Below are positions 5,118 to 30,851 of a stretch of 30,851 bases of DNA, one piece after another. Every line of letters starts with the position of its first letter. Within the stretch, counting starts at the first letter, position 1. Below the pieces are notes generated by a model, which did no database searches, had not been told where the DNA came from, and was given only the letters and a program-made list of their open reading frames with translations. The position numbers and the translations under genes are program-made. The stretch is from Hadesarchaea archaeon (GTDB lineage Archaea; Hadarchaeota; Hadarchaeia; Hadarchaeales; Hadarchaeaceae), in contig JAPDJH010000021.1 of the NCBI GenBank assembly GCA_029259175.1, positions 1-30,851 of the forward strand. Direction: 5' to 3'.

Positions 5118-5190
5118 CTTTGCCACCTCGTCGGGGTTGCGATACGTCTGCTCTGTGTTCGCAGACATATTAAGAATCACTGGTGAATAT

Positions 5191-5598: not shown

Positions 5599-5828
5599 TA
5601 TCTCTCCTCTCTGCTCGTCCGAATAATCCTAGTTATCTCGGCTGCGCTCATCTTCCCTCTAATTTTCGTGGACACTTTTCCCAAGTTGTCCAATAACAGC
5701 TTCCTTTCGTGTGCACGAACCTCCTTTTCAAGCGCCCTTCGCACAATCTCGCTGACTCTAAGCCGGTGCTTCTTGAGCCTTTCGTGCAGTTCCTTGGGGA
5801 TTTTCGCCGAAATCGTTACCATCCCCAT
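5598..5828 (-). CDS. vapB: Ribbon-helix-helix antitoxin (VapB-like)
   Basis: TISAKIPKELHERLKK...VSEIVRRAL RHH pattern; TAATG overlap with the PIN gene. Confidence 0.85.
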   Translation of the reverse strand: MGMVTISAKIPKELHERLKKHRLRVSEIVRRALEKEVRAHERKLLLDNLGKVSTKIRGKMSAAEITRIIRTSREER

Positions 5829-5838
5829 GCTCTCGAAT

Positions 5839-5882
5839 AATACTTTGTTGGTAATACTATATAAGTATTACATCAAAGTATT
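5839..5882. promoter_or_regulatory. Palindromic operator centred on the vapBC TATA box
   Basis: AATACTTTG-ttg-GTAATACT-atata-AGTATTAC-at-CAAAGTATT. Confidence 0.7.
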
Positions 5883-5890
5883 TACGAAAA

Positions 5891-8502: not shown

Positions 8503-8555
8503 GCGGACCCTTTCGACTATCCCCTCCAGAGATTTAAAACAATGACTGCTCTTTC

Positions 8556-8603
8556 TTGTTGTTCCAGAAATGGAATAATAAACAAAAATGGAAAAATATA
8601 AAA
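8556..8603. promoter_or_regulatory. Candidate RbkR operator plus TATA box of the rib operon
   Basis: Imperfect palindrome TTGTTGTTCCA-GAAA-TGGAATAATAA (8556-8581). The half-site AAATGGAA recurs at 8586. TATAAAA lies about 25 nt before ATG 8627. Confidence 0.5.
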
Positions 8604-8626
8604 CCCTCGCACATGAACCATTAGCG

Positions 8627-9276
8627 ATGCCCATAAGCGAAATCGATGTGCTTGTGGCGTTGTGCGAGCAGGGTGCGCAGCAAGGGTGGAAAGGGGTGAA
8701 GCTAAACCAGCTGGCCTCGCGTTTTAGCACATCAAAACAGACCATTCTGCGCCGCTTGCGCCTCTTGGAATCGAAAAACCTCATCAAACGCAGAAAGCAC
8801 GGACGCCAGCACCAAGTGTGGATAACCGAACACGGTATTGCGTTCTTGGTTCGAACAAAGCGGGTGATCGAACGAGTTCTGGAAAACCAGCCACACGAGC
8901 TGGTGCTGAGCGGCAGAGTGGTGGACGGAATGGGCGAGGGAAAATACTATGTGGGCCAGCGCTTCTACCGCCTTCAATTTAAGGAGAAACTGGGATTCAG
9001 TCCCTATCCCGGAACTCTCGACCTGATGGTCGATCGAAACTCCGTCGGAGATCTGGAACTGCTGCGCAATCAGCCGGGGCTGTTGGTAAAGGGCTTCAAA
9101 ACGAAGAACCGCACGTTCGGCGATGTGCGCGTTTTTCCAGCGCGAATCCACAACACGGAGTGCGCCGTGGTTTTTCCAGAGCGGGGGCATCACCGAGACA
9201 TTATCGAAATCGTCGCTCCGCAGAATCTAAGGCGGTCTCTCGGTCTGAAAAACGGTGACCGAGTGGAGGTGAGAGT

Positions 9277-9292
<16 letters not shown>
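8627..9292 (+). CDS. ribK: CTP-dependent riboflavin kinase with N-terminal winged-HTH (RbkR-type regulator)
   Basis: HTH LASRFSTSKQTILRRLRLLE; kinase motifs GMGEGKYYV, LGFSPYPGTL, GFK...RTFG, IEIVAP.NLR..L.LKNGD. Confidence 0.93.
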
Positions 9293-10430
<1,138 letters not shown>

Positions 10431-10437
10431 GAAAGAA

Positions 10438-10887
10438 ATGGTGCGATTGGGAATCGTCGCCAGTGAGTTCAACTTCGACGTCGTTTCACCGATGCTGGAA
10501 TTCGCACGCCGTCACGCCGAGTTCTTGGGAGCACAGATCACAGCAGAACTCATAGTGCCAGGAGTCTTTGAGATTCCGCTGGGCGCCAAGCGATTGGCAG
10601 AACAAGCGGACGTGGACGCCGTGGTGTGTCTCGGAGCCGTGATCGAGGGGGAGACCGAGCACGACGAAGTAATCATGCAACACGCGGTGCGCAAACTGAT
10701 GGATCTGAGCCTGCAGTACAACAAGCCCATGGGTCTCGGGATCTCGGGTCCGGGAATGACTAGACTGCAAGCGCTGGAGCGGGTGAACGACTACGCGCGC
10801 AGAGCCGTCGAAGCTGCAGTGAAAATGGTCAGGCGAAGCGAAGGCCAAGAAACACCCACGGTTCCCTCATGGCTGAGATCGGAGTAG
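10438..10887 (+). CDS. ribH: 6,7-dimethyl-8-ribityllumazine synthase
   Basis: GIVASEFN, VPGVFEIP, LGAVIEGETEHD, GLGISGPGM, AVEAAVKM. Confidence 0.96.
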   Translation: MVRLGIVASEFNFDVVSPMLEFARRHAEFLGAQITAELIVPGVFEIPLGAKRLAEQADVDAVVCLGAVIEGETEHDEVIMQHAVRKLMDLSLQYNKPMGLGISGPGMTRLQALERVNDYARRAVEAAVKMVRRSEGQETPTVPSWLRSE

Positions 10888-11637
10888 CGGGAACGACAAA
10901 CGGAGACGAAATGGTTCTGCGTTCCAGCTCTCATAGCTCAGAGCTAGTGCTTCCCCTCTTCTTAATTTGGGAAGGAGCGACGACTCTTTTCCGAAGTAAA
11001 GCGCGGCTGTTTCGATCTCCGCTTGATCTCGAGTGCCGAGATGAACTACTGTCCAGAAGTTTGTCCTCAGCGGGTCGGTCAGTGTCGAAAGACCCTCCGC
11101 GCTCATCGCCACCCCTATGCCCCATTTTCGGAACTCGCGCACCGCACGCTCTAGATAAAAAATGCTAGCACAGCGCGATCCACGGTTGTGAACAAGCACA
11201 TCGTATACCCCATCGAAAACCAATAACAAGCGCAGAGCTCTGCTCTCCTCACGAACACTGTCAGAGAGCTCATCCAAGAGACTAGCAAGCCTGTGGTCTA
11301 TCTTCTTAGAGTGGGCAAGATCCATCAGCACGCGAAGGTTCGGACTTCTAGCGTTGGAGATCATGGCAATTAGGTCCTTCGCGGAGGAATAGCAATCAAG
11401 AATTCTGCGTCCAAGGTGGGCATTCCATTCCGAAATTGTGGAAAACACAGCTACTCTACGACGGCGCTTGTACACTTGCTCCGCTACATATCTCATTAAG
11501 GCATGACGAGAAAACGGTGCTCCGCCACACACAAGCAAATGAGTGGAAAGGGAATCAACAGGAAGCATCCAGCGTGGATGGTGAACAGGAAAATCCACAT
11601 TTTTTCCCATAAAAACGGCAGCTCGTCCTCGAGGCAT
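10867..11637 (-). CDS. HerA/DUF87-like P-loop protein with degenerate Walker motifs (start uncertain, 11637 or 11649)
   Basis: THLLVCGGAPFSRH at the Walker A position, LLLVFDGVY at Walker B, VREFRKWGIGV arginine-finger motif, LPKLRRGEAL C-terminal motif. Confidence 0.65.
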   Translation of the reverse strand: MPRGRAAVFMGKNVDFPVHHPRWMLPVDSLSTHLLVCGGAPFSRHALMRYVAEQVYKRRRRVAVFSTISEWNAHLGRRILDCYSSAKDLIAMISNARSPNLRVLMDLAHSKKIDHRLASLLDELSDSVREESRALRLLLVFDGVYDVLVHNRGSRCASIFYLERAVREFRKWGIGVAMSAEGLSTLTDPLRTNFWTVVHLGTRDQAEIETAALYFGKESSLLPKLRRGEALALSYESWNAEPFRLRLSFPLLRSQP

Positions 11638-11703
11638 AGTTCCCAGCATACCATGAGCATGGGGTAAGATTAAATCCTTTCTTGAAAACTCCCTTTGGTT
11701 CGC

Positions 11704-12348
11704 ATGCTGCCCGAAAAAGTTGGTGTCCTCGCCATGGGATCGCACAACGAGCGCCATGGGGCGGCCTTGCCGCCAGACACCGACGCCAAACTAGCGGTGC
11801 ACGTAGCTGAGGAAGCCGCCAGACGCGTGGGTGCAAAATTCATTGGCGTGCTCTACTCCGCATACGAGCTTCCCAAAATTGACACGGGAGAACACCAGCC
11901 GCTCGAAGTCGTGCTCGACGAGTTGCGTAGCGCGCTAAAGAACGCAAAAAACCTCTTAGGCATCGAGGGAGCTGTAATCGTTAACGCTCATGGTGGGAAC
12001 AAGCCGGTGAGCAAACACATCCCGGAACTTGAGCGCGAGCTGGGGTTGAAAATCGCTTTCAATTCCACAATTGTGGATCTCGAGGGGCCTCACGCCGGCA
12101 CCGGAGAACTCAGCATGGGTGCGACGCTGGGGATTCTGGACCCATCCAAGCTGGCAGAACACACAGACTTCGCAAAATATCCTGAAGTTGGCTTCGTCGG
12201 GCTCACAGAAGCTAGACGAAAGTACGAATGGGTAGAACGACAAGCACAAGAAATCATGCGTCTTGGAGTTAGGGCGAGCCTCTTTTTAGGGAGAACACTC
12301 CTAGAATGCGCGATTTCTGATGTGATAAACACCATCAGAGAGCTATGA
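11704..12348 (+). CDS. arfB: FAPy (2-amino-5-formylamino-6-ribosylaminopyrimidin-4(3H)-one 5'-phosphate) deformylase, creatininase family
   Basis: GSHNERHGAALPPDTD, YEL, VNAHGGN, EGPHAGTGELS, YPEVGFVG; sits in the rib cluster. Confidence 0.88.
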   Translation: MLPEKVGVLAMGSHNERHGAALPPDTDAKLAVHVAEEAARRVGAKFIGVLYSAYELPKIDTGEHQPLEVVLDELRSALKNAKNLLGIEGAVIVNAHGGNKPVSKHIPELERELGLKIAFNSTIVDLEGPHAGTGELSMGATLGILDPSKLAEHTDFAKYPEVGFVGLTEARRKYEWVERQAQEIMRLGVRASLFLGRTLLECAISDVINTIREL

Positions 12349-13115: not shown

Positions 13116-14039
13116 TCAGCTTACAAAATCCAGCCATTCTAAGTATTTAGAGTTTCTACCCCGCACCGTGTCGAAGTAAATGCGCTGAAGACGCTCTGTA
13201 ATCGGGCCCCGAACGCCAGCGCCGATTGGCTTTCCGTCGACCTCCCGGATTGGAGTGACTTCTGCAGCAGTCCCTGTGAAAAACGCTTCATCGGCGCCAA
13301 GCAGGTCATCTACGGTGAGTTCGCGTTCTTCAAAGGGGATTCCCTCATCGCGTGCGATCCGGATGATCGAGTCTCGGGTGATTCCGATAAGGGCGCCAGA
13401 AGAAACAGGCGGAGTACACAAAACACCATCTTTTACCATGAAAACATTCTCTCCGGGCCCCTCAGCGATTTTTCCGTCCAAGTTGAGCAAAATGGCCTCG
13501 TCATAGCCCGAGCTGAGAGCATCGACCTTGGCCAAGATGGAATTGGCGTAGTTCGCGACAACTTTTGCCTGCGGTGGAAGAATAAGCGGGTGAATTCTAC
13601 GCCAAGGAGAGATCTTTACCCGAACTCCGCGCTTGAGTCCCTCTTCACCCAAATAGGTGCCCCAAGGCCAGACCACGATCGCCACATTCACTGGCGCTCC
13701 GGCAGGGTTGAGACCCATGACGCCATACCCGTAAAAAGCTATCGGCCGGATATAGCACTCTTCGATCTGATTTCGCCGTATGGTTTCCTTGACCGCCTCG
13801 ATTAGTTCCTCAATCCCATAGGGTATCTTCATCCCTACCATGCGGGCGGAATTGTGAAGGCGCTCGATGTGATCCTTCAGCCGGAAAACAGCCGGGCCCC
13901 TTTCGGTTTTGTAGCACCTAATGCCCTCAAAAACACCCATCCCGTAGTGCAGAGTGTGGGTGAGCACGTGGACCTTTGCTTCCTCCCACGGGACGAACTC
14001 GCCGTTGAACCAGATGAACTTTGTAGGGGTCAGCGTCAT
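13116..14039 (-). CDS. ilvE: Branched-chain amino acid aminotransferase
   Basis: LHYGMGVFEGIRCY, YIRP, AK...NY, EGPGENVF, LIGITR, TGTAAEVTP. Confidence 0.95.
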   Translation of the reverse strand: MTLTPTKFIWFNGEFVPWEEAKVHVLTHTLHYGMGVFEGIRCYKTERGPAVFRLKDHIERLHNSARMVGMKIPYGIEELIEAVKETIRRNQIEECYIRPIAFYGYGVMGLNPAGAPVNVAIVVWPWGTYLGEEGLKRGVRVKISPWRRIHPLILPPQAKVVANYANSILAKVDALSSGYDEAILLNLDGKIAEGPGENVFMVKDGVLCTPPVSSGALIGITRDSIIRIARDEGIPFEERELTVDDLLGADEAFFTGTAAEVTPIREVDGKPIGAGVRGPITERLQRIYFDTVRGRNSKYLEWLDFVS

Positions 14040-16891: not shown

Positions 16892-17038
16892 TCAGGCCCG
16901 CGGCTCCTTCGATTTGGGGCGTAACCCCTTATACCCACACTTTCGGCACTTCTCGGCTCTCCAAGGATTGCGGGCATTGCACTTCATACAGATCTTCACG
17001 CGGAAGAGCCTTCGTTCGGCTTCCGGAAAGCGCGCCAT
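16892..17038 (-). CDS. rpl40e: 50S ribosomal protein eL40 (48 aa, not in ORF track)
   Basis: Manual translation [48 protein letters not shown]; TAATG overlap with the upstream gene. Confidence 0.96.
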
Positions 17039-17898
17039 TATCTGACCCTCCTCAGCTCCGCAAACACTTCTGGAAGCTTCTCTATAACATCCGACGCTAC
17101 GAATTCATAACCTTTTTCTCGCGCGCACAAATCACCGGCTCTGCCACAAATCCACGCGGCACAACACGCTGCTTCGAAGGGCTGAAGCCCCTGCGCAAGC
17201 AGCGCCCCTACGATCCCCGCCAACACGTCACCCGTCCCTCCCACAGTCATTCCAGCGTTTCCCGTGGGATTCAATGCTGTCTTTCCATCTGGAGCGACTA
17301 CAACGTCCCGCGGCGACTTGAGCAGGAGCGTGACCTCTTGTTTTTCCGCCCAAACACGCATCACCGAAATATCCTTGGCCCGCTTACCACTCAGCGCTTT
17401 TCCCACTATGCGTTCGAACTCGCCTCGATGAGGGGTCAAAACCCATCTCCTGCTCAGACGCGAAGAGGGCAAAGCCTTCAGCGCGTCGGCATCGACCACT
17501 GCTTTTTTGTTTCGCAGACGGGAGAGCAACACTCTCACCGCTCTAAGAGTCGCAGGCATGTCGCCAAGACCCGGACCGAGAACCACCGCATCTGACCGCT
17601 GAACTGCTCTCCCCAAGCGCTGCAGCGCCCGAGGAGTGAGCACGCGACCCGGAAGTTTGATGGTTATCAGGTCTGGCGAAAACGAGTTGATGATCCAAGC
17701 CGCTTGCTCTGGAGCAGCTATGACTGCGAGATCGGCACCGCTCCTGAGAGCGGCTAGAGCGGCCAAGGCGGGAGCACCAACAAACTGCTCACTTCCCCCG
17801 ACCACCAGGACTCTTCCATTGTCTCCCTTATGGGAATCGGGACGTCTGGTCGGGATCCAGCGCGCGACCCGCCGCTTGGTCAAAAGCACGCCAACCAT
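17038..17898 (-). CDS. nnrD: ADP-dependent NAD(P)H-hydrate dehydratase (stand-alone YjeF_C)
   Basis: [42 protein letters not shown]. Confidence 0.93.
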
Positions 17899-17960: not shown

Positions 17961-19328
17961 ATGCCGCGGAAAAAATCCGTACCATGGAACGGTCTGCTCC
18001 CCAAAGTCGTAGTTAGGGTTCCCGGTCCCAAGGCGCGGAAAATCGTTGCCAGAGACAAACGAGTGATGTCCCCTTCCTACACGAGAGCTGAACCGATAGT
18101 CGCGAGTGACGGGTGGGGCTGCTATGTGCGGGATGTGGACGGCAACATCTTCCTCGATTTTTCTTCCGGCATGTTTGTTTTGAATTACGGGTATTCCCAC
18201 CCACGCCTCATTTCGGCCGTCGAACGCCAGCTCCGTAAACTCACGCACTTCGCTGGCACGGACTTCTACTACGAGGCGCAAGTGACTCTAGCAGAAATGC
18301 TCATCCGAATCACTCCAGGACGCTTCGAAAAGCGCGTCTATTTCGGCAACAGCGGAGCGGAATCCGTCGAAGCGGCATTCAAATGCGCTCGCTGGCACAC
18401 CCGGCGCCCGCGCATGCTCTCCTACGTAGGGGGTTTCCATGGGCGCACTTTCGGTGCGATGAGTCTTTCGTCAACCAATGTGTTGCACCACCGCTACTTT
18501 GCCCCCTTGGTTCCAGGCGTGAGTTTTCTCCCCTACCCCTACTGTTATCGGTGCCCGTTCAAACTGGAATATCCTGGCTGTGGATTCGCCTGCATAGACT
18601 TCATCAAAGACATGTTGCGCAAGGTGATTCCGCCCGAGGAAGTAGCAGCAATAATCACGGAGCCTATCCAGGGGAGCTCGGGCTACATCGTGCCGCCGCC
18701 GGAATACTTCAAGGTCATAAAGGAGGAGTTCTGTGACAAGTATGGCTGGCTCTTCATAGTGGATGAAATCCAGACGGGATTGGGTCGAACCGGAAAAATG
18801 TTTGCTATCGAACACTGGAAAGTCATCCCGGACATAGTGTGTGTGGCCAAAGCGCTGGCCGGTGGAATCGCACCCATCGGTGCGACCATCGCGCGCGCCG
18901 AGGTGATGAACTGGGAGCCAGGAGCACATGCATCCACGTTCGGCGGCAATCTGGTCGCGTGTGCAGCGGCCATTGAGGGGCTCAAGCTGTTGAAAGAAGA
19001 AAAACTCGTAGAAAGAGCAGCGAAGCTCGGCAGAGTGATGCTAAGGCGTCTCACCGATCTTGCAGAACGATCCAGACTCATTGGTGACGTGCGAGGAAAA
19101 GGATTGCTCGTCGGGATCGAGCTTGTGAAAAACAAGCGAACGAAAGAACGAGCGATAAAGGAGCGCAATGCGGTTGTGCAGCGGGCCTTGGACAAAGGGC
19201 TGCTCATCTTTCGGGGAGGCAAGTCTGTGATTCGATTGGCCCCGCCACTGACCATCACGCGCCAAGAGCTCGATCTGGGTCTCGATCTTTTTGAGGAGGC
19301 CCTGCGAGAGGTCGAGCGCAAATGCTGA
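17961..19328 (+). CDS. Class III (fold type I) PLP-dependent aminotransferase, GABA/ornithine-AT family
   Basis: DVDGN..LDF, NSGAESVEAA, FHGRT, DEIQTG.GRTG, catalytic K in VAKALAGG, STFGGN, RGKGL, IRLAPPL. Confidence 0.93.
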   Translation: MPRKKSVPWNGLLPKVVVRVPGPKARKIVARDKRVMSPSYTRAEPIVASDGWGCYVRDVDGNIFLDFSSGMFVLNYGYSHPRLISAVERQLRKLTHFAGTDFYYEAQVTLAEMLIRITPGRFEKRVYFGNSGAESVEAAFKCARWHTRRPRMLSYVGGFHGRTFGAMSLSSTNVLHHRYFAPLVPGVSFLPYPYCYRCPFKLEYPGCGFACIDFIKDMLRKVIPPEEVAAIITEPIQGSSGYIVPPPEYFKVIKEEFCDKYGWLFIVDEIQTGLGRTGKMFAIEHWKVIPDIVCVAKALAGGIAPIGATIARAEVMNWEPGAHASTFGGNLVACAAAIEGLKLLKEEKLVERAAKLGRVMLRRLTDLAERSRLIGDVRGKGLLVGIELVKNKRTKERAIKERNAVVQRALDKGLLIFRGGKSVIRLAPPLTITRQELDLGLDLFEEALREVERKC

Positions 19329-20635
19329 TGCTCAAGCCGCATTTCAAGACCAACGTACGGGGACATTTGGTGATTGGCGAGATGGACACCGTGGAGCTGG
19401 CTGAACGCTTTGGTACTCCCTTGTACGTGATGGATGAGCAACGGATTAGAGAGAATTACCGGCGCTTTTACAAAGCATATGCTGACCGATGGGGGGGAGT
19501 TCTGGTATGCTATGCACTGAAGGCCAATTCCAACTCCGCGGTCGTCCGTGTGCTCCAGAGTGAGGGTGCCGGCGCAGATGTGAGTTCGGAAAACGAGTTG
19601 CGCATCGCTCTCCGAGCTGGGATACCTGGAAACAAGATGGTTTTCAATGGGAACCACAAAACCATGCGCGAGCTCGCTTTGGCAATCGAGAACGATGTGC
19701 TGATAAACGTGGACAATTTTCAGGAGCTGGAGCTCGTAGACCGGCTAGCCGCTAAAGCCGGAAAACGCGCGCGAATATCTTTTCGTGTAAATCCTGACGT
19801 GGAAGCCCCTACACACCCATACATCGCAACAGGGCTGAAAGAAAGCAAGTTTGGATTCGATGTGGCGAGCGGTCAGGCGCTTCAGGCCTACCGGATGGCT
19901 GCTCGCATGAGAAACGTGGAGGTTATTGGAATCCACGCCCACATAGGGTCGCAAATCCTGGACCCCGCTCCCTTCGAGGAAGAGGCAGAAAAGCTCATGC
20001 AACTGGTGGTTCAGATAAAGGAGGAAGTGGGAGTGTTTATCTCGGTGGTTGATTTCGGAGGGGGACTGGGTATCCCGTACAAACCAGAAGATCAGGAGCT
20101 GGATCCGGAAGTGGTGGCGGAGCGGGTGGTGGGGGTTGTGTCGCGCTACGTGGAAGAGCACGATCTGCCAAGACCTATCCTCATGTTCGAGCCGGGGCGC
20201 TACATCGTCGGGGATGCGGGAGTGCTGCTAGCACGTGTGGGGTACATCAAAGAAAGACCCGGTTTGCCCACATGGATTGCGATCGACGCTGGAATGAACG
20301 CCCTTATAAGGCCTGCGCTCTACGGTGCCTATCACCACATCGAAGTGGCAAACAAAATCCGCGAAGCCAACGAGCGTGAGTACAACATAGCCGGGCCGCT
20401 CTGCGAATCGGGAGACTTTCTGGGTAAACAGCGAAAACTCCCACGGGTGGAGCCCGGGGACCTCATAGCGATCTTCGACGTGGGGGCCTACGGACTTGCG
20501 ATGTCCAACCAACACACGGCACAGTCAAGGCCAGCAATGGTCTTGGTCAACGGGAAGAAAGCAGCCATAGTGCGCAGGCGTGAAACGTTTGAGGATCTGG
20601 TCCGCTTGGATGAGATTCCAGAGTGGTTGAAATGA
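19322..20635 (+). CDS. lysA: Diaminopimelate decarboxylase
   Basis: GTPLYV, YALKANS, IATGLKESKFG, HAHIGSQ, GGGLG, EPGRY, GPLCESGD, GAYG. Confidence 0.97.
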   Translation: MLMLKPHFKTNVRGHLVIGEMDTVELAERFGTPLYVMDEQRIRENYRRFYKAYADRWGGVLVCYALKANSNSAVVRVLQSEGAGADVSSENELRIALRAGIPGNKMVFNGNHKTMRELALAIENDVLINVDNFQELELVDRLAAKAGKRARISFRVNPDVEAPTHPYIATGLKESKFGFDVASGQALQAYRMAARMRNVEVIGIHAHIGSQILDPAPFEEEAEKLMQLVVQIKEEVGVFISVVDFGGGLGIPYKPEDQELDPEVVAERVVGVVSRYVEEHDLPRPILMFEPGRYIVGDAGVLLARVGYIKERPGLPTWIAIDAGMNALIRPALYGAYHHIEVANKIREANEREYNIAGPLCESGDFLGKQRKLPRVEPGDLIAIFDVGAYGLAMSNQHTAQSRPAMVLVNGKKAAIVRRRETFEDLVRLDEIPEWLK

Positions 20636-21855
20636 AGCGGATAGTGGTCAAGTTCGGCGGAACAAGTGTGGGGAATCTAGCACGGATAAGAAGGGATGCG
20701 GAAGCGGTAGCCAGAGAGGTGAAGCGAGGAAATCAAGTAGCCGTGGTGGTATCAGCCATTGGACACACTACTGATGCGCTGATTAAAGCATTCAAAACCT
20801 TCAATCCCAGTCCTGAGCCAGCGGATATAGACTTCATCATGGCGTTAGGAGAGCGCTACTCGGCACGTGTCTTCGCCCGGATTCTGCGAGAGCTGGGGAT
20901 TCAAGCCAAGGCGATCGATCCGAGGAGTCCGGAGTGGCCAGTAATCACCGATTCGCGGCACGGAATGGCCAACATCGACTTTGAGGAAACGAGACGCAGA
21001 GCACAACGATACCTGCTGCCGCTTATGAAGCGCGGGGTAGTTCCCGTGATATGCGGTTTTCTGGGAAAAAACAAGAAGGGGTGGATCACCACGCTGGGGC
21101 GCGGGGGAAGCGATATCACGGGCTTTCTGATGGGTGAGTGCTTGGATGCGGACGAAGTGGTGATCGTCACGGATGTGGACGGGGTCATGAGCGCCGATCC
21201 AAACGTGGTAAGAGAGGCCCAGGTGCTGAGGCGAATAAGCGTGGAGGAGATGCGGGATCTCGCCAGATTCGGTGCGCAGGTCATGCACCCGCGGGCAATG
21301 GCATACAAGCATCCGAAGATCACGGGGAAAGTGGTGAACTTCAGAAAGTGGAATTTGCAAGCTCCTGGGACCGTGATCGTCGGTCCTCAAGAAAAAGAAA
21401 CGGAGAGGGTGTGGCTCTACCCCGAACCGCTGGCAATGCTCACCGTGGTGGGGGAGGAGATGCAAACAACGCCCGGTGTGCTCGTCAAGGCCTCTACTCC
21501 CGTCAGTCGGGCGCGGATCAACATCTTCGGGGTGTCGATTGGGCCACGCTCCTTCTCGCTCTACGTGCGGGAGGAAGACGCTGAGCGGGCAGCCCGTCTC
21601 GTTCACCGCGTCATCGTGAAGAACGGGTTGATGAAGTCGGTTACCATCCAGAAAGGGCTGGCGATGATAACTGCTGAAAGCGAACGCTTCATCTACACCC
21701 CGGGAGTGATCGCCAAGCTCACGGCACCGGTGGGGCACGCCGGGATAAACATTGTGGAGATTCTGTCGAGCAGAGCTTCCATCAGCTTTTTCGTCGACTG
21801 GGAAGTGCGCGAGCGAGCACTCAAACTGTTTAAAGAGGCGATGCAGAGGATTTGA
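20632..21855 (+). CDS. lysC: Aspartate kinase with ACT domains
   Basis: VVKFGGTSV, VVVSA, TTLGRGGSD, TDVDGVMSADP, GAQVMHP; ATGA overlap with lysA. Confidence 0.96.
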   Translation: MKRIVVKFGGTSVGNLARIRRDAEAVAREVKRGNQVAVVVSAIGHTTDALIKAFKTFNPSPEPADIDFIMALGERYSARVFARILRELGIQAKAIDPRSPEWPVITDSRHGMANIDFEETRRRAQRYLLPLMKRGVVPVICGFLGKNKKGWITTLGRGGSDITGFLMGECLDADEVVIVTDVDGVMSADPNVVREAQVLRRISVEEMRDLARFGAQVMHPRAMAYKHPKITGKVVNFRKWNLQAPGTVIVGPQEKETERVWLYPEPLAMLTVVGEEMQTTPGVLVKASTPVSRARINIFGVSIGPRSFSLYVREEDAERAARLVHRVIVKNGLMKSVTIQKGLAMITAESERFIYTPGVIAKLTAPVGHAGINIVEILSSRASISFFVDWEVRERALKLFKEAMQRI

Positions 21856-21864
21856 GGGACGCGA

Positions 21865-22746
21865 ATGTTTGAAGGGGTTTTCACAGCCATGGTTACGCCG
21901 TTCGACAAGGACGGCAAAGTAGATGAAGAAGGGCTTCGAAAAAACGTGGAATTTCAAATCAAAAGCGGGGTTCACGGGCTCGTGCCGGTGGGGACGACGG
22001 GAGAATGCGCCACTCTATCATACGAAGAACACAATCGTGTCATCGAGATCGTAGTAGATGCCGCAAAGGGGCGTGTCCCCGTTCTAGCTGGTACCGGGAG
22101 CAATTCCACTTGGGAAGCCATCATGCTTACCAAACACGCGAAAGAAGTAGGGGCGGACGGAGCGCTTATCGTAGTTCCCTACTACAACAAGCCGACCCAA
22201 GCAGGTCTCTATGCTCACTACAAGCGCATCGCCGAAGAGGTGGACATCCCAATAGTCATTTACAACATACCGTCGCGCACGGGAATCAACATGCTCCCTG
22301 AAACGATGGCAAAGCTGGCCAAGCTTTCCAACATAGTCGGGGTAAAGGAAGCCACCGGAGATATGGATCAAGTGAAACGGATTATAGAGCTCACCAAGAA
22401 CGAGGATTTCGTGGTGACCTCGGGGAACGATTCCGACACGCTGGAAATTATGAAGCTCGGAGGAGTCGGAGTAATTTCGGTTGCATCCAACATCGTTCCA
22501 GATCGTGTGGTCGCGCTGGTGGAAGCGGCTAAGAGCGGGGAGTGGGAAAAAGCCGAGCGAATACACCAAGAGCTCAGCCCTCTCTTCAAAGCCCTCTTTA
22601 TCGAGACCAATCCGGGGCCGGTTAAAACGGCCATGAACTGGATGGGGCTACCAGCAGGGGGGCTAAGACTTCCGCTGGTGGAGATGGCGCCGGAAAACCA
22701 GCAAAAACTGCGCGAAGTGCTTGTGCAGATGGGGCTTCTAAAATGA
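21865..22746 (+). CDS. dapA: 4-hydroxy-tetrahydrodipicolinate synthase
   Basis: TAMVTPF, GTTGE, PYYNKPTQ, YNIPSRTG, GVKEA, ETNP.PVK. Confidence 0.97.
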   Translation: MFEGVFTAMVTPFDKDGKVDEEGLRKNVEFQIKSGVHGLVPVGTTGECATLSYEEHNRVIEIVVDAAKGRVPVLAGTGSNSTWEAIMLTKHAKEVGADGALIVVPYYNKPTQAGLYAHYKRIAEEVDIPIVIYNIPSRTGINMLPETMAKLAKLSNIVGVKEATGDMDQVKRIIELTKNEDFVVTSGNDSDTLEIMKLGGVGVISVASNIVPDRVVALVEAAKSGEWEKAERIHQELSPLFKALFIETNPGPVKTAMNWMGLPAGGLRLPLVEMAPENQQKLREVLVQMGLLK

Positions 22747-23564
22747 TTCGAGTGGCACTCTGCGGGGCCTGCGGGCGAATGGGTCGTGAAATCATTAAGC
22801 AGCTGGTGAAACAGCCAGACATGAAGCTATCGGCGGCAATCGAAGCTCCGGATTCCCCCTTTCTCGGAAAAGATGCCGGTGCGGTGGCCGGAGTAGGAAA
22901 GCTTGGGGTCAAGGTCGAGAGCGCCAAAGAACTCCCAAAAGCTTTGAAAGAAAAGAAACCCGATGTGCTGGTCGACTTCACACGAGCTGAAGCAGCGGTC
23001 GAAAATGTTCGAATCGCTGCAGAACTCGGAGTCCCAGTAGTGGTGGGGACCACGGGGTTCTCGGCAGAACAGAAAAAAATGCTCGAAGAAGTCATAAGCC
23101 GAAACAAGATACCTGCGGTGATTTCTCCAAACATGTCGGTGGGAGTAAACGTTTTTTTCAAACTCGTTTCTGAAACTGCACGAATGCTCGGTCCCGACTA
23201 CGAAGTGGAAATAGTAGAGACCCACCACCACGGAAAGCTGGATGCGCCAAGTGGTACGGCTCTTAAAGCAGCCAAGCTCATTGCCGATGCGTTAGGGCTG
23301 AGCGAAGATCTGATAAAAACAGGGAGGCCGGCGGGAAAACAAGAGAAGCGGGGAAAGGAAATTTACATTCACTCGTTGAGAGTTGGGGACGTGGCTGGAG
23401 AGCACACCGTCGTGTTCGCTGGGCCAGCCGAGCGAATCGAACTTACCCACCGAGCGCACAGCCGGGAAACTTTTGCGGCAGGAGTCATCCGGGCCATCCG
23501 GTTCGTGAAAGAGCACGGAAAAGCCGGGAAAGTCCACGACATGTGGAACGTGCTGGGTCTATAA
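22743..23564 (+). CDS. dapB: 4-hydroxy-tetrahydrodipicolinate reductase
   Basis: GACGRMG, VDFT, VGTTG, PNMSVGVN, ETHHHGKLDAPSGTA, GEH, HRAHSR..FA.G. Confidence 0.97.
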   Translation: MIRVALCGACGRMGREIIKQLVKQPDMKLSAAIEAPDSPFLGKDAGAVAGVGKLGVKVESAKELPKALKEKKPDVLVDFTRAEAAVENVRIAAELGVPVVVGTTGFSAEQKKMLEEVISRNKIPAVISPNMSVGVNVFFKLVSETARMLGPDYEVEIVETHHHGKLDAPSGTALKAAKLIADALGLSEDLIKTGRPAGKQEKRGKEIYIHSLRVGDVAGEHTVVFAGPAERIELTHRAHSRETFAAGVIRAIRFVKEHGKAGKVHDMWNVLGL

Positions 23565-23608
23565 TAATGTTTTAATACTGTGCTGGGGCTGGAAATAGGG
23601 GATCGAAG

Positions 23609-24748
23609 ATGAAGCGCATTCCAGTTGGGATCCTAGGTGCGACTGGAGAAGTCGGACAGAAGTTTGTGGTTAATTTGCAGAATCACCCGTGGTTTGAGAT
23701 CAGAGAACTGTATGCCTCTGAACGGTCAGCTGGACTCACCTACGCGAGGGCTGTGGGGTATGGAGAATCTGAAAGCCGGTGGTTCTTGAAGGAAACTCCG
23801 AACGAGGAAATTCTGGAAATCAAAGTGAAAAACGTGCGTGAAGCGGCGGGTGGGGAGTGCAAAGTCTATTTCTCTGCTCTCCCATCCAAGGTCGCGCTGG
23901 AAATAGAGGGAGAAATCGCCAAACAACACCCGGTCGTGAGCACCGCTTCGGCTTATCGGTACTTCGAAGACAGCTTCACCTACTTGCCGGGAGTAAACGA
24001 GGAGCATGTGGCCATGATTGAGGTGCAGCAGCGAAGCCGGGGGTGGAAAGGGTTTGTGGTGCCCCAGCCCAACTGCACGACGATCGGACTGGTGCTCTCG
24101 CTCAAGCCCATCTACGACCGCTTTGGACTTCAAGAGGTGATCATGACATCCATGCAGTCGGTTTCTGGCGCAGGCTACGGTGCTGTGGTCGAATGGGCGA
24201 AGCAAAGGAGAGAACAGGGGGGTGATCTGCCATCAGAACTCTCAGAGTATCGTCCAAAGCTTTTCGAAGGCAACGTCATTCCGTACATCGAAAAGGAGGA
24301 AGAAAAAGTGAAGAAAGAAACAGTTAAGTTGCTGGGAAAATTCGAGAATGGCAAAATCTTCCCGGCGGAGTTCAAGATCGCGTGCAAATGCAACCGTGTC
24401 CCGGTGCTTCACGGACACACCGAGTCAGTATTCATCCGGACTCGGGAACCAGCCACGGTGGAAGAACTCAAGCGCACTTGGTCCGAGTACCGGGGTGAGC
24501 CCCAGCACTTGAAGCTCCCATCTGCCGCAGAGCGACCAATAGTAGTAATGAAGGAACGTGACAGACCACAGCCTCGGTTCGATGTGCTTATCGAAAAAGG
24601 AATGGCGGCCGTTGTCGGCGGGGTAGAAGCGAACATTTTTGAAAACGGCTTTCAGTACACCGTCCTTTCCCATAACACGGAGCTGGGCGCGGCGAAGGGT
24701 GCGGTTCTGGCCGCCGAATATCTCTACAAAATCGGAAGGATCAAATGA
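23609..24748 (+). CDS. asd: Aspartate-semialdehyde dehydrogenase (archaeal/fungal type)
   Basis: GATGEVGQ, HPWFE, ASERSAG, PNCTT, QSVSGAG, EEEK, RVPVLHGH, HNTELGAA. Own TATA-like TTTTAATA near 23570. Confidence 0.94.
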   Translation: MKRIPVGILGATGEVGQKFVVNLQNHPWFEIRELYASERSAGLTYARAVGYGESESRWFLKETPNEEILEIKVKNVREAAGGECKVYFSALPSKVALEIEGEIAKQHPVVSTASAYRYFEDSFTYLPGVNEEHVAMIEVQQRSRGWKGFVVPQPNCTTIGLVLSLKPIYDRFGLQEVIMTSMQSVSGAGYGAVVEWAKQRREQGGDLPSELSEYRPKLFEGNVIPYIEKEEEKVKKETVKLLGKFENGKIFPAEFKIACKCNRVPVLHGHTESVFIRTREPATVEELKRTWSEYRGEPQHLKLPSAAERPIVVMKERDRPQPRFDVLIEKGMAAVVGGVEANIFENGFQYTVLSHNTELGAAKGAVLAAEYLYKIGRIK

Positions 24749-25683
24749 ACCGCGCCTCTCCTAACGGAGTAACAACCGTCGCTGTCGTCGTTTTTGCAAT
24801 AGTTGTGGTGGTCATTGCCCTCGGTGCAATTTTTTTGCTGGGGAAGCCGAGCAGTTTTACTCATGAATCTGCGACCCTCATCCAAATAACTTTCTCAAAT
24901 TCGGATTACGATCCGGACTGGAGTCCGGACGGCGCCAAAATAGTTTTCGCCCATGTTGAAGGAGAAACGCAAACTTTGTATATAGTCAACGCGGACGGAA
25001 CAGGGCTCACGGAAATCGGTCCGGGTTTCGATCCCGCTTGGAGCCCGGTCGAGAACAAGATAGCGTACACACTGGACGGGCAGATCTACACCATGAACTC
25101 TGACGGCAGCGACGTTACCCAGCTAACAACAGAAGGGTTCAACGGCAATCCTGCTTGGAGCCCGGACGGCACCAAGATAGTTTTTACGAGATACGAAGAA
25201 GAGGAAGCATCGATTTGGATAATGAACAGAGACGGTAGCGAAAAAGTCCAGCTTACCTTTCCAGAGAACGACGGGAGGTGTTCTTGGCCTTCCTTCAGCT
25301 ACGATGGGTCGAAAATCGTTTACATCAAAGGGCCAGTGACTGCAACGCCTGGTGAAGAGGCCGAACCCAACGAAATCTGGGTGATGAATAACGATGGTTC
25401 GAACAAGCACCCGATATATGCTCCTGGAGACAGCGGGCAGCTGATATTTCAACGCGCTTGGAACAAGGATAACAAAATCTTGTTCATGAAACAAGTGCCG
25501 GGAAGACCGCCCGACGTGTGGGTGATAAACTCCGATGGTTCTGGTGCTTCTCCTGTGCTCGAAAGCGACCAGTATTGCTATGGCGATCCGGTGTGGGATC
25601 TGGCTGGCACGAAAGTGGCACTCATAAAATCCTCTTCTCCGGGATCTCAAAACGTTTTTATCTTTCTTTGGCCTCAGGAGTGA
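24745..25683 (+). CDS. Membrane-anchored TolB-like / PD40-repeat beta-propeller protein
   Basis: N-terminal hydrophobic helix; repeats PDWSPDG, PAWSP, PAWSPDG, PSFSYDG and [IV][WY]x[VM]NxDG[ST]. Confidence 0.88.
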   Translation: MNRASPNGVTTVAVVVFAIVVVVIALGAIFLLGKPSSFTHESATLIQITFSNSDYDPDWSPDGAKIVFAHVEGETQTLYIVNADGTGLTEIGPGFDPAWSPVENKIAYTLDGQIYTMNSDGSDVTQLTTEGFNGNPAWSPDGTKIVFTRYEEEEASIWIMNRDGSEKVQLTFPENDGRCSWPSFSYDGSKIVYIKGPVTATPGEEAEPNEIWVMNNDGSNKHPIYAPGDSGQLIFQRAWNKDNKILFMKQVPGRPPDVWVINSDGSGASPVLESDQYCYGDPVWDLAGTKVALIKSSSPGSQNVFIFLWPQE

Positions 25684-27258: not shown

Positions 27259-30200
27259 TCAGCCCAGCGGGCGCACCACCAGCTCCTTCACGCGCTCGTA
27301 GTAGATGATGTCGTTTTCCGCACCCATCCCCTCGATCACTAACTTAACAATGCCGTCATCCACCTCGCTGTTGTCCGCCCAGCACACGGTGGTTCCGAAC
27401 TGGGCATTTATCTGCTTGCTCAGTCGTGTGAAGTATCCATACCATGCGTCGGTGTACTCCGTGAGCACTTTCACCGTCACCGAGCTCACGTTGGGCGTGC
27501 TCGGATCTGTCGGTCGGACGGTGTAGAGGGGTGCTCTGGGCATGTAGACGGAGAGCCCGCCCGAGGTTACCACTATTCGTCCAGACATGCCACTGGGCTG
27601 CGACACGAACAGGTAGTTCACGGTGACTTTCAAATCGCTTCCGCCAGCGCTCTCGATCTGGATCATATTTTCCGGTGACGAGATCATGACGCTCTTGTCC
27701 TGTTGCGCCAGAATCACTGCTCCTCCTTCTATCACCCACTCCTGATCGGGATACTCTGAATAGTGCGGATCTATTACGATAGAGCCTAGGCCGCCGTAAT
27801 AAGCGATTCGGACCTCGTGAACGGCAGGTGCGGCGCTCTTATCGGCGTTAGCTGCCAAGTTGACTCGATACTGGATGTACCGGGTGTTGGGCAACGAGCT
27901 GAGATCGGCTTTGCCTCCGGTGTACGGGCCGTACCACTCGCTCATCCCATCTGGACGGTTGCCCACGCGCACGTAAAGGGCCACGGAAGTACCGGGAGGC
28001 CTCGTCTCGTCCCACTCCAAGAAGCGCCAGTCCACTCGCTGTCCGGCGTCGAAGACGTCTGACAGGAAACTACCGGAGGATACGAAGCGTGTCACGAAGC
28101 GGAACGGGATCTCGCGGTGGGCCTTGATCTCCCATCCAGTTTCACTGCTCGAGCTTACGTAGTTAGACGAGGACCCTCCGTAACCGGTTTCGGTCCATCC
28201 GGTGGTATCCTCCCAAGCCGTCTTCATCGTGTTGACCGCCACGTAGTTTTTGAAATCCGATCCGGGAGACATTACATAAGCGATGTATTGCTCATTTTCC
28301 CAGATGTCAACTGGATTCGGGAAGGTGAAGCGGAGCCACTCCCATCCGAAATCGGATACGTCAATGGGTCTTTCCACATAGAAGCGTTGGAGCACCGTCC
28401 CACCGTTTTTCAGACCCACCCAGAACTCCGCTGGATCGCCAACGCGCTGGCAGAAGAACTCAATTGCTCCGGCCTTGAAATCACTGCCACTGAAGCTTCC
28501 ATACGCCTTGTCTACCCGGAAGCTCTCACCCGCATTGTTGTGCTGGAAGATCTCGTCGGCCGACTTGTAGTAGGGATTTCCATCGTAATTGTCGATAGTG
28601 AGCCAGTTGTCATCTGTGCTCACGTCCAACACGTACTGGGGCTCACGGTTGTAGAGCGGGCTGGCGGGATCCTCAGAAGTCCACCACGTCTTGCCACCGT
28701 CGGGCGAGTAAAGGACTCCACGGTTCTGGTTGATGGGTTGGTTGTTGATCCAGTTATCGTGTTTTGGCTTGATCGCGAGTGGTATGAAGTAGTTCTCCTC
28801 GGAAATAAAGTTACCGGAGACGCTGGGGTTCGCGTCCACCACCAAGTGATAGGTCTGACTCGGATAGACGGTAACGATGGTGTCGAACTCCATTCCAATG
28901 AAGGTATCCTCCTGAGGCACGCTTTGTACGTTATACTTCTTCTGTCCTACGCGCGGATAAGGCATATACCACTCGCTTGGCCAGTCCTTATCGGCGTATC
29001 CGACCGCCGTGGCCAGCACGTTGCTCAGATCCGGTTTACCAGTGCCGTCATCGGGGCAGAGGCGAATCCGGATCCAATTGTCATCGTCCCAGCGCCCCGG
29101 AGAGTCTCCAGGCGATATGGTTTCTCCCTCCTCTGTCAACTGGACAAGCAAACGAACGCGAACCACGTTCTCCTGTTGCTTGGGCTGGAATCGGATGGAG
29201 AAGAGCTTGTTCGGCCCATCGATCTTGGCTCGCGGCGAATAACCGGACTCTCCGGCAAACTGGTTGCCCCAGTAGCTCTCGGCTTGCAGGGTGATATCAC
29301 CGGGAGCCACGAGTTCGACGTTAGACCCATAGTCGGACGGCATTCTTCCGGAAGCGAATTCTTCGGTTGTGGTCTGTTTCCACGTTTTGAGCAGCGCATC
29401 TAGGGAGGGAGTAGTTGCGCCTCCAGAAGTCGTGGGCTGGTAAGAGAGCTGGACTTGATGGACCACAGGAGTAGTAGCGTTGTCGGGCGTCTGGAGTTCG
29501 AGCCGGTACTGGATATAGCGGGCGGAGGAGTCGATGGTGGAGCCAGAGATTTCCTGCCATACACTCCACCCCCCGTCGTACGGATTGGGATCGCTGCCGG
29601 TTCTCACGTATTTGTTGACCGTGCCCCCACTCAGGGTTGCCCACAAGGTGATAGTCTTCCAGCTCACGACCTCGCCAGCGTCGAAAACGCTAGACTCGAT
29701 GGCGCCACTCGTGCAGAAGTTCTCGGCTATTAGAAGCTTGAATACAGGATCACGCCGAGTGTTGTCGGTCCAGCCAGCGCCTCCAGTCGCCGAAGAGGTC
29801 CCGTAGGTGTTGGTCCCATCAAAGGTTGCCCTATCGGTACACCCTGGAAGATAGCTGACAGAGCGGCCGGGGGCCATCCAGAGATAGTAGTTGGATGTGT
29901 CTCCACCGGTAGTCCAGAAGTACGCCCGGTACCGGTGGTCGTCTAACAACACGTTTTCAGTTGAGATGGTGACCCAAGACCAAGTGGTGTCCACAGAGGC
30001 CGAAACTTGTCGGTTCTCGATCACGCAAGCGGAGGTCAAGTCATAGAGGGTGAAGTAGAGGCTGGGCGGAGAGCCGACCTTTTTCAGATAGGCGGAGAAG
30101 CCAAGCAAGAGTTTAGTATTGTCAAGGATGGTGCCCGTCAGCGTGAAGACCACACCGGCGTAGCGATTGCCGTAGATCGTGTAGGCGGTGTTTTCGTCAT

Positions 30201-30851
30201 AGGGGTTGCCCTGGTGGGCGTCCACGGAGCCGCTCGAGTTCGTGTCCACGTCCAAGACGTAGATGGGCTGGTAGTTCCGTGCCACCCAAGTGCTCCCATT
30301 GTAGTAGAGCACGTTGAAGTTCCCGGGGGTCTGCCCATCGTACGGCATGTTGTCGTTCAGCGGCGAGCTCACGCGCAGAATGATCCAGCTCATATTCTCA
30401 GCGGCCGGTTTGCTCCAGGCGATGGAGATGTCGTCGAAGCGCGGGGTCCGCGTGTTGTCGGTGGTCGAGAGCTCGACGCGGTAGCGGATGTACCGGCCCA
30501 CCATTCCGACCGACTCGCTTCCATCGCCCGCGGTGAACGGTCCGGCGCTGGCCGACCACCCCGCGGTGGTGGAGTTATCGACTTGTACGTACACCTGGAT
30601 GTCCGTCCCAACCGGTTTGGAATGTGTGAAGCTGATGGTGCCCCACTGGGTATCGGTAGAGCCGGAATCGTACCAGGTAGAGAGCAGGTACCCGCTGGTG
30701 TAGTGGTGAGTGGTGCTATAACGGGTTTCAAAGACAAGATAATTCAGGCGGGCCTTGAAGGAGTAGCTAGAGTTCTCTCCGATAAGGCGGATGCGGATGT
30801 TGTCAGAGGTGTCGTGGATGTAGTTTTCCGGGTCGACGGTGATGGTGTTGT
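27259..30851 (-). CDS. Very large extracellular beta-rich repeat protein with archaeal pilin-like C-terminal domain; 5' end beyond window
   Basis: Frame is open from the window edge (about 1196 codons visible). S/T/G/Y/W-rich. Three RYI[QR]YRxxL modules. C-terminal YPDQEWVIEGGAVILAQ...MISSP and TEYTDAW..YF. Confidence 0.85.
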   Translation of the reverse strand, partial: NTITVDPENYIHDTSDNIRIRLIGENSSYSFKARLNYLVFETRYSTTHHYTSGYLLSTWYDSGSTDTQWGTISFTHSKPVGTDIQVYVQVDNSTTAGWSASAGPFTAGDGSESVGMVGRYIRYRVELSTTDNTRTPRFDDISIAWSKPAAENMSWIILRVSSPLNDNMPYDGQTPGNFNVLYYNGSTWVARNYQPIYVLDVDTNSSGSVDAHQGNPYDENTAYTIYGNRYAGVVFTLTGTILDNTKLLLGFSAYLKKVGSPPSLYFTLYDLTSACVIENRQVSASVDTTWSWVTISTENVLLDDHRYRAYFWTTGGDTSNYYLWMAPGRSVSYLPGCTDRATFDGTNTYGTSSATGGAGWTDNTRRDPVFKLLIAENFCTSGAIESSVFDAGEVVSWKTITLWATLSGGTVNKYVRTGSDPNPYDGGWSVWQEISGSTIDSSARYIQYRLELQTPDNATTPVVHQVQLSYQPTTSGGATTPSLDALLKTWKQTTTEEFASGRMPSDYGSNVELVAPGDITLQAESYWGNQFAGESGYSPRAKIDGPNKLFSIRFQPKQQENVVRVRLLVQLTEEGETISPGDSPGRWDDDNWIRIRLCPDDGTGKPDLSNVLATAVGYADKDWPSEWYMPYPRVGQKKYNVQSVPQEDTFIGMEFDTIVTVYPSQTYHLVVDANPSVSGNFISEENYFIPLAIKPKHDNWINNQPINQNRGVLYSPDGGKTWWTSEDPASPLYNREPQYVLDVSTDDNWLTIDNYDGNPYYKSADEIFQHNNAGESFRVDKAYGSFSGSDFKAGAIEFFCQRVGDPAEFWVGLKNGGTVLQRFYVERPIDVSDFGWEWLRFTFPNPVDIWENEQYIAYVMSPGSDFKNYVAVNTMKTAWEDTTGWTETGYGGSSSNYVSSSSETGWEIKAHREIPFRFVTRFVSSGSFLSDVFDAGQRVDWRFLEWDETRPPGTSVALYVRVGNRPDGMSEWYGPYTGGKADLSSLPNTRYIQYRVNLAANADKSAAPAVHEVRIAYYGGLGSIVIDPHYSEYPDQEWVIEGGAVILAQQDKSVMISSPENMIQIESAGGSDLKVTVNYLFVSQPSGMSGRIVVTSGGLSVYMPRAPLYTVRPTDPSTPNVSSVTVKVLTEYTDAWYGYFTRLSKQINAQFGTTVCWADNSEVDDGIVKLVIEGMGAENDIIYYERVKELVVRPLG

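Follow-up and report, generated by a model that had tools for sequence, protein, structure and literature searches.

A class III aminotransferase gene upstream of lysA is a candidate for the missing diaminopimelate-forming step of lysine biosynthesis in Hadarchaeota

How does an archaeon that encodes both ends of the diaminopimelate (DAP) pathway to lysine bridge the middle of it? The question is raised by a gene cluster at positions 17,961 to 24,748 of contig JAPDJH010000021.1 of a Hadesarchaea archaeon (assembly GCA_029259175.1). The whole contig, 30,851 nucleotides, was analysed and is called the window here. A Pfam and NCBIfam scan of its open reading frames (ORFs) found six co-directional genes on the + strand in the order AT1-lysA-lysC-dapA-dapB-asd (Table 1), where AT1 denotes a class III aminotransferase dependent on pyridoxal phosphate (PLP). 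The five DAP pathway enzymes LysC, Asd, DapA, DapB and LysA all score above their equivalog cut-offs. Four branches from tetrahydrodipicolinate (THDP) to meso-DAP are established: the succinylase branch, the acetylase branch, DAP dehydrogenase (Ddh), and DapL with DapF. None of the four was found in the source genome, and the genomic evidence set out below suggests that AT1 probably aminates THDP to DAP, the missing step before LysA.

The window is contig C11 of the source genome (G000; 1,306,024 bases in 23 contigs, 90.88% complete and 0.54% contaminated). The models for DAP epimerase (PF01678), Ddh (TIGR01921) and DapD (TIGR00965) found nothing at E ≤ 0.001 anywhere in this genome, and the genome-wide family searches place no dapF, dapL, ddh, dapD or M20 match on contig C11. 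The best score of the acetyl-type DapD model TIGR03532 is 41 bits, and this weak match was rejected as DapD, the protein being a gamma-carbonic anhydrase. The sole M20 match (26 bits) was rejected as DapE, the protein being an M28 peptidase that falls in no NCBIfam family. The DapL models TIGR03540 and TIGR03542 reach top scores of 132 and 294 bits in G000, below their cut-offs of 365 and 593, and their matches are limited to two genes outside the window, C2:120017-121147 and C3:88566-89390. The former, a class I aminotransferase, was rejected as DapL because its best score is that of an archaeal aspartate aminotransferase (AspAT, 411 bits). When two Hadarchaeal DapF proteins and one Hadarchaeal Ddh were used as phmmer queries against the 13,276 six-frame ORFs of G000, nothing was returned at E ≤ 10, and a Hadarchaeal DapL-like query matched only the same two generic class I genes. 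ArgD is encoded separately, in an argB-argD-argF-arcC cluster (481 bits). The aminoadipate route is not an alternative, since no LysX above cut-off was found in five genomes. A preliminary description, made from the letters of the window alone, had the first five genes overlapping or lying within 10 nt of each other with asd next, and had seen no dapD, dapE, dapL, dapF or ddh in the window. Coordinates, family scores and searches bear out both statements, and the second now extends to the whole genome, which yielded no dapL above cut-off and none of dapF, ddh, dapD and dapE.

The same gap recurs in a survey of 66 species-representative Hadarchaeota genomes, for which the dapD search covered the source genome only. 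LysA is above cut-off in 59/66 genomes, DapF is present in 6/66, Ddh is above cut-off in 3/66 and DapL in 0/66. Five genomes of genus g14 hold a DapL-like gene (390-409 bits) that directly adjoins dapF. Each of the nine genomes with an alternative route also has lysA, and 50/66 genomes have LysA without DapF or Ddh, among them the 94-95% complete genomes G025 (3 contigs), G062 (4 contigs) and G043 (9 contigs). Strong M20 matches (at least 93 bits) are restricted to genera g9 and g14 plus G046 and G001, and a class I aminotransferase like that on C2 of G000 (294 bits to the DapL model) is found in 58/66 genomes. One of the six DapF genes is on a contig of 4.7 kb in G058, whose contamination is 4%; the neighbours of this gene share only 29-41% identity with G000 proteins, and we could not confirm that it belongs to that genome. 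The gap is a robust property of the phylum. Hadarchaeota keep LysC, Asd, DapA, DapB and LysA without the four known branches, and an undescribed enzyme must therefore exist.

One alternative explanation places AT1 in an acyl branch, acting as a DapC-like N-acyl-LL-DAP aminotransferase alongside an unrecognisable acyltransferase and deacylase. ArgD/DapC is class III like AT1, and its substrate is a derivative of 2-oxo-pimelate; in E. coli the DapC role is filled by ArgD, and the ArgD type is annotated as acetylornithine/succinyl-DAP transaminase in the name of NF003468. However, ArgD/DapC needs DapD and DapE, neither of which was found in G000: TIGR00965 has no match there, the best LbH protein is the gamma-carbonic anhydrase, and the one M20-like gene encodes the M28 peptidase. 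Elsewhere in the phylum M20 matches of at least 93 bits are confined to g9, g14, G046 and G001. AT1 scores 336.4 bits with the argD model (TIGR00707), below its cut-off of 410, and the genome has its separate 481-bit ArgD. With two unknown enzymes required, as against none or one, we regard this explanation as very improbable.

AT1 keeps close company with lysA. Ortholog and adjacency counts were read from match coordinates in the 66 genomes, the orthologs being 58-81% identical. AT1 orthologs are present in 55/66 genomes, and in 49/55 lysA follows immediately downstream in the same orientation. In four of the other six (G007, G008, G053 and G061) the contig ends at the junction, and in G031 and G032 the lysA-asd block has moved elsewhere with AT1 still at its old left neighbour. 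Public records contain 21 loci of at least 60% identity, of which 17 have the order AT1-lysA(-lysC-dapA-dapB), 2 are relocated and 2 are at a contig edge. At 59 loci carrying the paralog type of about 50% identity, drawn from many bacterial and archaeal phyla, no dap gene is within reach (0/59). The closest proteins and loci in the databases are all labelled Hadarchaeota, Hadesarchaea or Hadarchaeales. Family f5 has AT1-lysA as an isolated pair, apart from a second lysA-lysC-dapA block.

Genomes of family f5 have two LysA genes (L102, G062:C1:391000-409000; L105, G060:C9; L104, G062:C2). The copy paired with AT1 is 70% identical to the LysA of the window, and the copy heading the block is 50-54% identical to it and scores 458 bits with TIGR01048. 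In G043, of the same genus as the window, an extra LysA-family decarboxylase lies away from the lysine cluster (L103, G043:C4:17000-35000, ORF 7874-9169, - strand); it is 40% identical to the LysA of the window, with 445 bits to TIGR01048.

A few intact clusters lack AT1. The region upstream of lysA is assembled in 54 genomes, three of which are without AT1, and all three have an alternative route. AT1 is kept in 46/46 genomes whose cluster is assembled and which lack an alternative route (naive exact test of AT1 absence against alternative route, ~0.002). Ddh (~390 bits, cut-off 180.6) is found only in G013, G016 and G022, all of one genus, on contigs whose neighbouring genes encode proteins 57-72% identical to those of G000. 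In G013 and G016 the order lysA-lysC-dapA-dapB-X-asd lies mid-contig, AT1 is absent from both the locus and the genome, and orthologs of the GGGP synthase and NAD(P)HX dehydratase genes of the window stand directly upstream of the block. The third genome, G049, holds a dapL-like gene with dapF and has an intact mid-contig cluster with the same left neighbour and no AT1. In all three AT1-less clusters the NAD(P)HX dehydratase ortholog is directly upstream of lysA; this gene forms a conserved boundary on the left of the cluster and serves as a marker of context, with no part in the pathway itself.

The preliminary description had proposed that the class III enzyme fills the gap between THDP and meso-DAP, and had named as checks whether its clade stays beside lysA and anticorrelates with dapL and dapF. 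The adjacency is borne out in the 49 of 55 genomes. The anticorrelation stands in part: every AT1-less intact cluster (3/3) belongs to a genome with Ddh or with a dapL-like gene and dapF, and five genomes keep both AT1 and an alternative. The gap, the adjacency and this partial anticorrelation together favour the proposed role, which we predict from sequence.

The same clusters bear on the product that reaches LysA. Within the genus, the LysA proteins of Ddh-only and AT1-bearing genomes share 92-93% identity. An alignment of 26 AT1-linked LysA sequences has 125 columns that are at least 95% conserved, and a single one of these is altered in the Ddh-only pair (L-to-M, in one genome). The product of Ddh is meso-DAP. 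Because Ddh makes meso-DAP and LysA is unchanged in the Ddh-only genomes, the AT1-dependent route would have to deliver meso-DAP, and we infer that the INTERMEDIATE is meso-DAP, the intermediate common to both routes.

AT1 is a full-length member of its superfamily, with a PF00202 match of 391.5 bits (cut-off 30.5) over residues 52-455 and profile positions 10-403 of 403. The equivalog model NF004426 (PRK05769, 'acetyl ornithine aminotransferase family protein', cut-off 552) gives 580.6 for AT1 and 587.2 for its ~50%-identical paralog; since both pass, the model is uninformative on substrate and does not split the clades. In a FastTree phylogeny of 83 rows the AT1 clade is monophyletic and confined to Hadarchaeota, with support of 100, and its sisters are Hadarchaeal paralogs and Borrarchaeum sequences, a topology that fits an origin by duplication followed by a change of function. 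AT1 sits outside DapL, ArgD/DapC, the strict omega-aminotransferases and the known class III racemases, and would work like DapL. The paralog of G000, AT2 (C1:203007-204329; L100:5999-7345, - strand), is 50% identical to AT1 and has GabT-like motifs (Ile-Ala and the Glu switch); its type occurs in ~25/66 Hadarchaeota genomes and is widespread in bacteria. At two Borrarchaeum loci, L031 (~8001-10859) and L033 (~3557-6409), tandem class III aminotransferases 51% and 37-38% identical to AT1 have no dap neighbours.

The AT1 active site combines a conserved catalytic core with altered specificity positions. Residue numbers follow the 462-aa ORF that opens at TTG, and are lower by 7 in the ATG form. 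K304, D275 and S138-G139 are invariant in 22/22 AT1 and 60/60 paralog sequences; by alignment to hOAT/GabT numbering we take K304 to be the Schiff-base lysine, D275 the Asp at the pyridine nitrogen and S138-G139 part of the phosphate-binding SG(A/T)E motif, with PMC13327489 as a further basis for these roles. Both substrate arginines (hOAT Arg180 and Arg413) are kept in 22/22, as R169 in FHGRT and R432 in IR-x-PP. The Glu-switch position 246 (hOAT Glu235, GabT Glu211) is S, N, T or G in 22/22 locus sequences and in 117/117 database representatives in which the motif was found; 56/60 paralog-type sequences have E there, as do PH1423 and 2eo5. The position of hOAT Tyr85 and GabT Ile50 is Met in 22/22, followed by Phe, and this 'MF' replaces Ile-Ala in 118/118 representatives in which the motif was found. 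Among 150 representatives of at most 53% identity the Met-Phe signature was seen in none (0/150), the switch-motif pattern being recognised in only 103/150. Further residues specific to the AT1 clade are Y83, Y85, W270 and R359, and an extra arginine, R425, is present in 98/115 representatives. PMC13327489 describes the roles of the Glu switch, Tyr85 and the substrate arginines in hOAT, and states that the switch normally shields the arginine for the alpha-carboxylate while an omega-amine binds. Loss of the switch fits an enzyme whose two substrates, here 2-oxoglutarate and ring-opened THDP, would both bear a carboxylate on the reacting carbon.

We propose that AT1 is a neofunctionalised class III aminotransferase that would supply DAP to LysA in Hadarchaeota. 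The acceptor would be ring-opened THDP (L-2-amino-6-oxopimelate), taken as a 2-oxo acid, and the donor glutamate; substrate, donor and stereochemistry are predicted here from conserved residues and genome context. AT1 would be the functional counterpart of DapL, possibly of DapL and DapF together, and would complete an operon running from Asp to Lys. Its nearest characterised homologues are PH1423 and TK2101 of the Thermococcales (7vno; 413.6 bits, E 1.1e-122), which belong to the NF004426 family and have the same Lys and both Arg. According to PMC9986279, 7vno is PH1423, an ornithine delta-aminotransferase that also acts on L- and D-lysine, and PH1423 and its T. kodakarensis counterpart TK2101 accept 2-oxoglutarate and 2-oxoadipate. 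With such acceptors in its closest characterised relatives, a C7 2-oxo-dicarboxylate acceptor would be a small step for AT1. PH1423 and TK2101 differ from AT1 in having EPIQGEGG, with the Glu switch, and Ile-Gly at the Tyr85 position, where AT1 has QG[S/N/T][S/A]G and Met-Phe. Unlike AT1, they are not reported beside lysA, nor is any of the 59 paralog-type loci.

Several points weigh against this assignment. The source genome is 90.9% complete, a caveat on its gap. The DapF search matched 9/14 control genomes, and three controls have lysA without a DapF-family match (Methanosarcina acetivorans, Lactococcus lactis and Deinococcus radiodurans); these controls reflect either the sensitivity limit of the genome search or other lineages that are likewise without canonical DapF. 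Five carriers of an alternative route keep an intact AT1 that is still linked to lysA: G022 holds Ddh in addition to AT1-lysA, G048, G052 and G054 hold the dapL-like gene with dapF, and the fifth is G058. Because AT1 persists beside alternatives in these five, redundancy does not always cause its loss; G053, also with the dapL-like gene and dapF, has AT1 as a partial gene. G013 and G016 are close kin, so the three AT1 losses probably represent about two independent events. The hOAT variant E235S loses only ~8-fold in efficiency on ornithine (PMC13327489), and since it still uses ornithine, an omega-amine substrate would be compatible with loss of the Glu switch. Finally, an L-specific amination would yield LL-DAP, for which no epimerase candidate was found.

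Some of these points would also suit an AT1 that has no part in the step from THDP to DAP and works instead as an ornithine or lysine omega-aminotransferase, a diaminobutyrate (aspartate-semialdehyde) aminotransferase or an extra AspAT, with an unrecognised enzyme elsewhere filling the gap. The persistence of AT1 beside Ddh or DapL/DapF in five genomes and the residual ornithine activity of hOAT E235S are consistent with such a role, as is the identity of the closest solved homologue, the P. horikoshii ornithine delta-aminotransferase (7vno), and the passing of NF004426 by AT1 and paralog alike. This would leave unexplained, however, the pattern of AT1 absence (3/3 with an alternative route versus 0/46 without), the conserved stop/start overlap with lysA, and the clade-wide change at two specificity positions. 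Omega-aminotransferase roles could be covered by the GabT-like paralog in ~25/66 genomes, and an AspAT-like class I gene is present as well. We consider a role outside the pathway unlikely.

A different role within the pathway would make AT1 an epimerase only, an analogue of DapF that interconverts LL- and meso-DAP by PLP chemistry, with the class I aminotransferase at C2:120017-121147 of G000 performing the DapL reaction. AT1 shares fold and family with the class III racemases, which include isoleucine 2-epimerase, the Ala/Ser racemase PH0782 and PH0138 BAR (PDB matches; PMC6047364). Its gene immediately precedes lysA, five near-complete genomes yielded no other racemase family, and the class I aminotransferase (294 bits to the DapL model) is available in 58/66 genomes. 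The active site argues otherwise. ILEP D222A and D222N are nearly inactive and ASR D234A is inactive (PMC6047364), and this Asp aligns with the Glu switch in one column, as its distance to the Lys confirms; for ASR that D-to-K spacing is 57, whether counted in the chain or in the numbering of the paper. The Asp is never present in AT1 (22/22 locus sequences; 117/117 representatives with S, N, T or G). The distal-carboxylate arginine of FHGRT is kept in AT1 but lost in the racemases, being Q or M in the two that are solved. Because AT1 is without the Asp and keeps this arginine, a racemase of the known class III type is unlikely, and the class I aminotransferase scores best as an archaeal AspAT (411 bits). 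The preliminary description had offered a PLP-dependent DAP epimerase as one option, which is weakened by a clade lacking the Asp that is essential in related racemases, and epimerase-only activity now seems distinctly improbable.

Returning to AT1 as the aminotransferase for THDP, the D-centre of meso-DAP has to come from somewhere. In five near-complete genomes with AT1 as their only candidate route there is no DapF-fold gene, no Asp/Glu racemase above cut-off, no proline racemase and no PhzF-type protein. The only match of G000 to the alanine-racemase-type, fold-type III PLP family is lysA itself, and the class III enzymes of G043, G025 and G062 are AT1 and ArgD only. The paralog AT2 was rejected as an epimerase on its GabT-like motifs and its absence from the latter three genomes. 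Since no epimerase family was found and AT1 and ArgD are the sole class III enzymes in G043, G025 and G062, one of three options should hold: AT1 forms the D-centre, AT1 also epimerises, or a wholly unrecognised epimerase exists. D-phenylglycine aminotransferase (D-PhgAT) is a class III enzyme. The class III scaffold can form or invert D-centres (PMC6047364; for the stereo-inverting D-PhgAT, PMC3503884). Perhaps AT1 alone converts THDP to meso-DAP, through a stereo-inverting amination with L-glutamate as donor or as a bifunctional aminotransferase/epimerase; we put this forward tentatively, as a possibility that falls short of likely. The unchanged LysA of Ddh-only relatives and the lack of epimerase families in the five near-complete genomes point in this direction.

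Two known systems make the comparison concrete. DapL (EC 2.6.1.83; TIGR03540/TIGR03542) aminates THDP in one step with glutamate, bypassing DapD, DapC and DapE (PMC3102117). Its reaction is the one proposed for AT1, and a dapL-like gene with dapF stands in for AT1 in G049. In contrast, DapL is a class I/II enzyme and AT1, of class III, has no match to the DapL models; DapL moreover needs DapF, which is lacking in 60/66 Hadarchaeota genomes. Ddh (TIGR01921) also leads in one step from THDP to the LysA substrate; G013 and G016 have it in place of AT1, and G022 has both. Unlike AT1, Ddh is an NADPH- and ammonium-dependent dehydrogenase that uses no PLP and is unrelated in sequence.

The layout of the cluster is given in Table 1. 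The AT1 ORF opens at TTG 17940 (462 aa), and the start is likely ATG 17961, which gives a 455-aa protein identical to database protein P0001. AT1 and lysA overlap by 7 nt, the AT1 stop TGA (19326-19328) lying within the lysA start ATGCTGA. At the remaining junctions lysA and lysC overlap by 13 nt, lysC and dapA are 9 nt apart, dapA and dapB overlap by 4 nt, and a 44 nt gap separates dapB from asd.

Table 1. Genes of the lysine cluster and its left border in the window
Feature	Coordinates	Strand	Family evidence
AT1, class III (fold-type I) PLP aminotransferase	17961..19328	+	PF00202 391.5 bits; NF004426 580.6 vs cut-off 552
lysA, diaminopimelate decarboxylase	19322..20635	+	TIGR01048 509.9 bits vs cut-off 297.9
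lysC, aspartate kinase with ACT domains	20623..21855	+	NF005159 470.2 vs cut-off 379; Pfam AA_kinase + ACT
dapA, 4-hydroxy-tetrahydrodipicolinate synthase	21865..22746	+	TIGR00674 386.5 vs cut-off 206
dapB, 4-hydroxy-tetrahydrodipicolinate reductase	22743..23564	+	TIGR00036 312.8 vs cut-off 122
asd, aspartate-semialdehyde dehydrogenase, archaeal type	23609..24748	+	TIGR00978 344.9 vs cut-off 301
NAD(P)HX dehydratase gene, divergent	17038..17898	-	TIGR00196 268.5 bits

Two metatranscriptome runs from one sample each contain seven short contigs (160-325 nt, at most one mismatch to the cluster). They fall on AT1 (18964-19177), lysA, lysC, dapA, the dapB-asd junction (23517-23700) and asd, and none spans AT1-lysA. 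These contigs are a weak hint that the cluster is expressed, DNA carry-over being possible, and stretches that they leave uncovered are uninformative.

Other genes in and around the cluster were also considered. The inserts between dapB and asd in relatives, which include a polysaccharide pyruvyl transferase, DUF6951, DUF364 and a nucleotidyltransferase, were rejected as hidden pathway members because their content varies from genome to genome. A class IV aminotransferase 4 kb upstream (13116-14039, - strand) was rejected as the former of the D-centre, being a canonical branched-chain IlvE (442.8 bits, cut-off 279). An archaeal GGGP synthase gene lies 1 kb upstream of the cluster, and on its right side an ORF at 24745-25683 (+ strand) overlaps the asd stop and encodes a PD40/TolB-like beta-propeller protein (PF07676). 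Two further ORFs of the window, 27259-30594 (- strand, 1111 aa) and 10867-11757 (- strand, 296 aa), have no Pfam match at E ≤ 1e-5, and the latter also has no NCBIfam match at E ≤ 1e-10.

The DapL branch was itself discovered by a similar genomic gap analysis. Within the literature library searched, we found no published description of the Hadarchaeota lysine route or of a class III THDP aminotransferase. The present analysis narrows the candidate to one conserved, operon-embedded gene. If the role of AT1 is confirmed, a non-orthologous class III enzyme would be added to lysine biosynthesis, the annotation 'GABA/acetylornithine aminotransferase' would be corrected for hundreds of database entries, and metabolic reconstructions of Hadarchaeota would no longer report an 'incomplete lysine pathway'. 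If AT1 forms the D-centre, thermophiles would offer a natural stereo-inverting transaminase, a rare kind of enzyme that is of interest for biocatalysis. Should AT1 act alone, Hadarchaeota would have a fifth branch of the DAP pathway: AT1 and LysA, both PLP enzymes and translationally coupled, would lead from THDP to lysine without DapF or Ddh.

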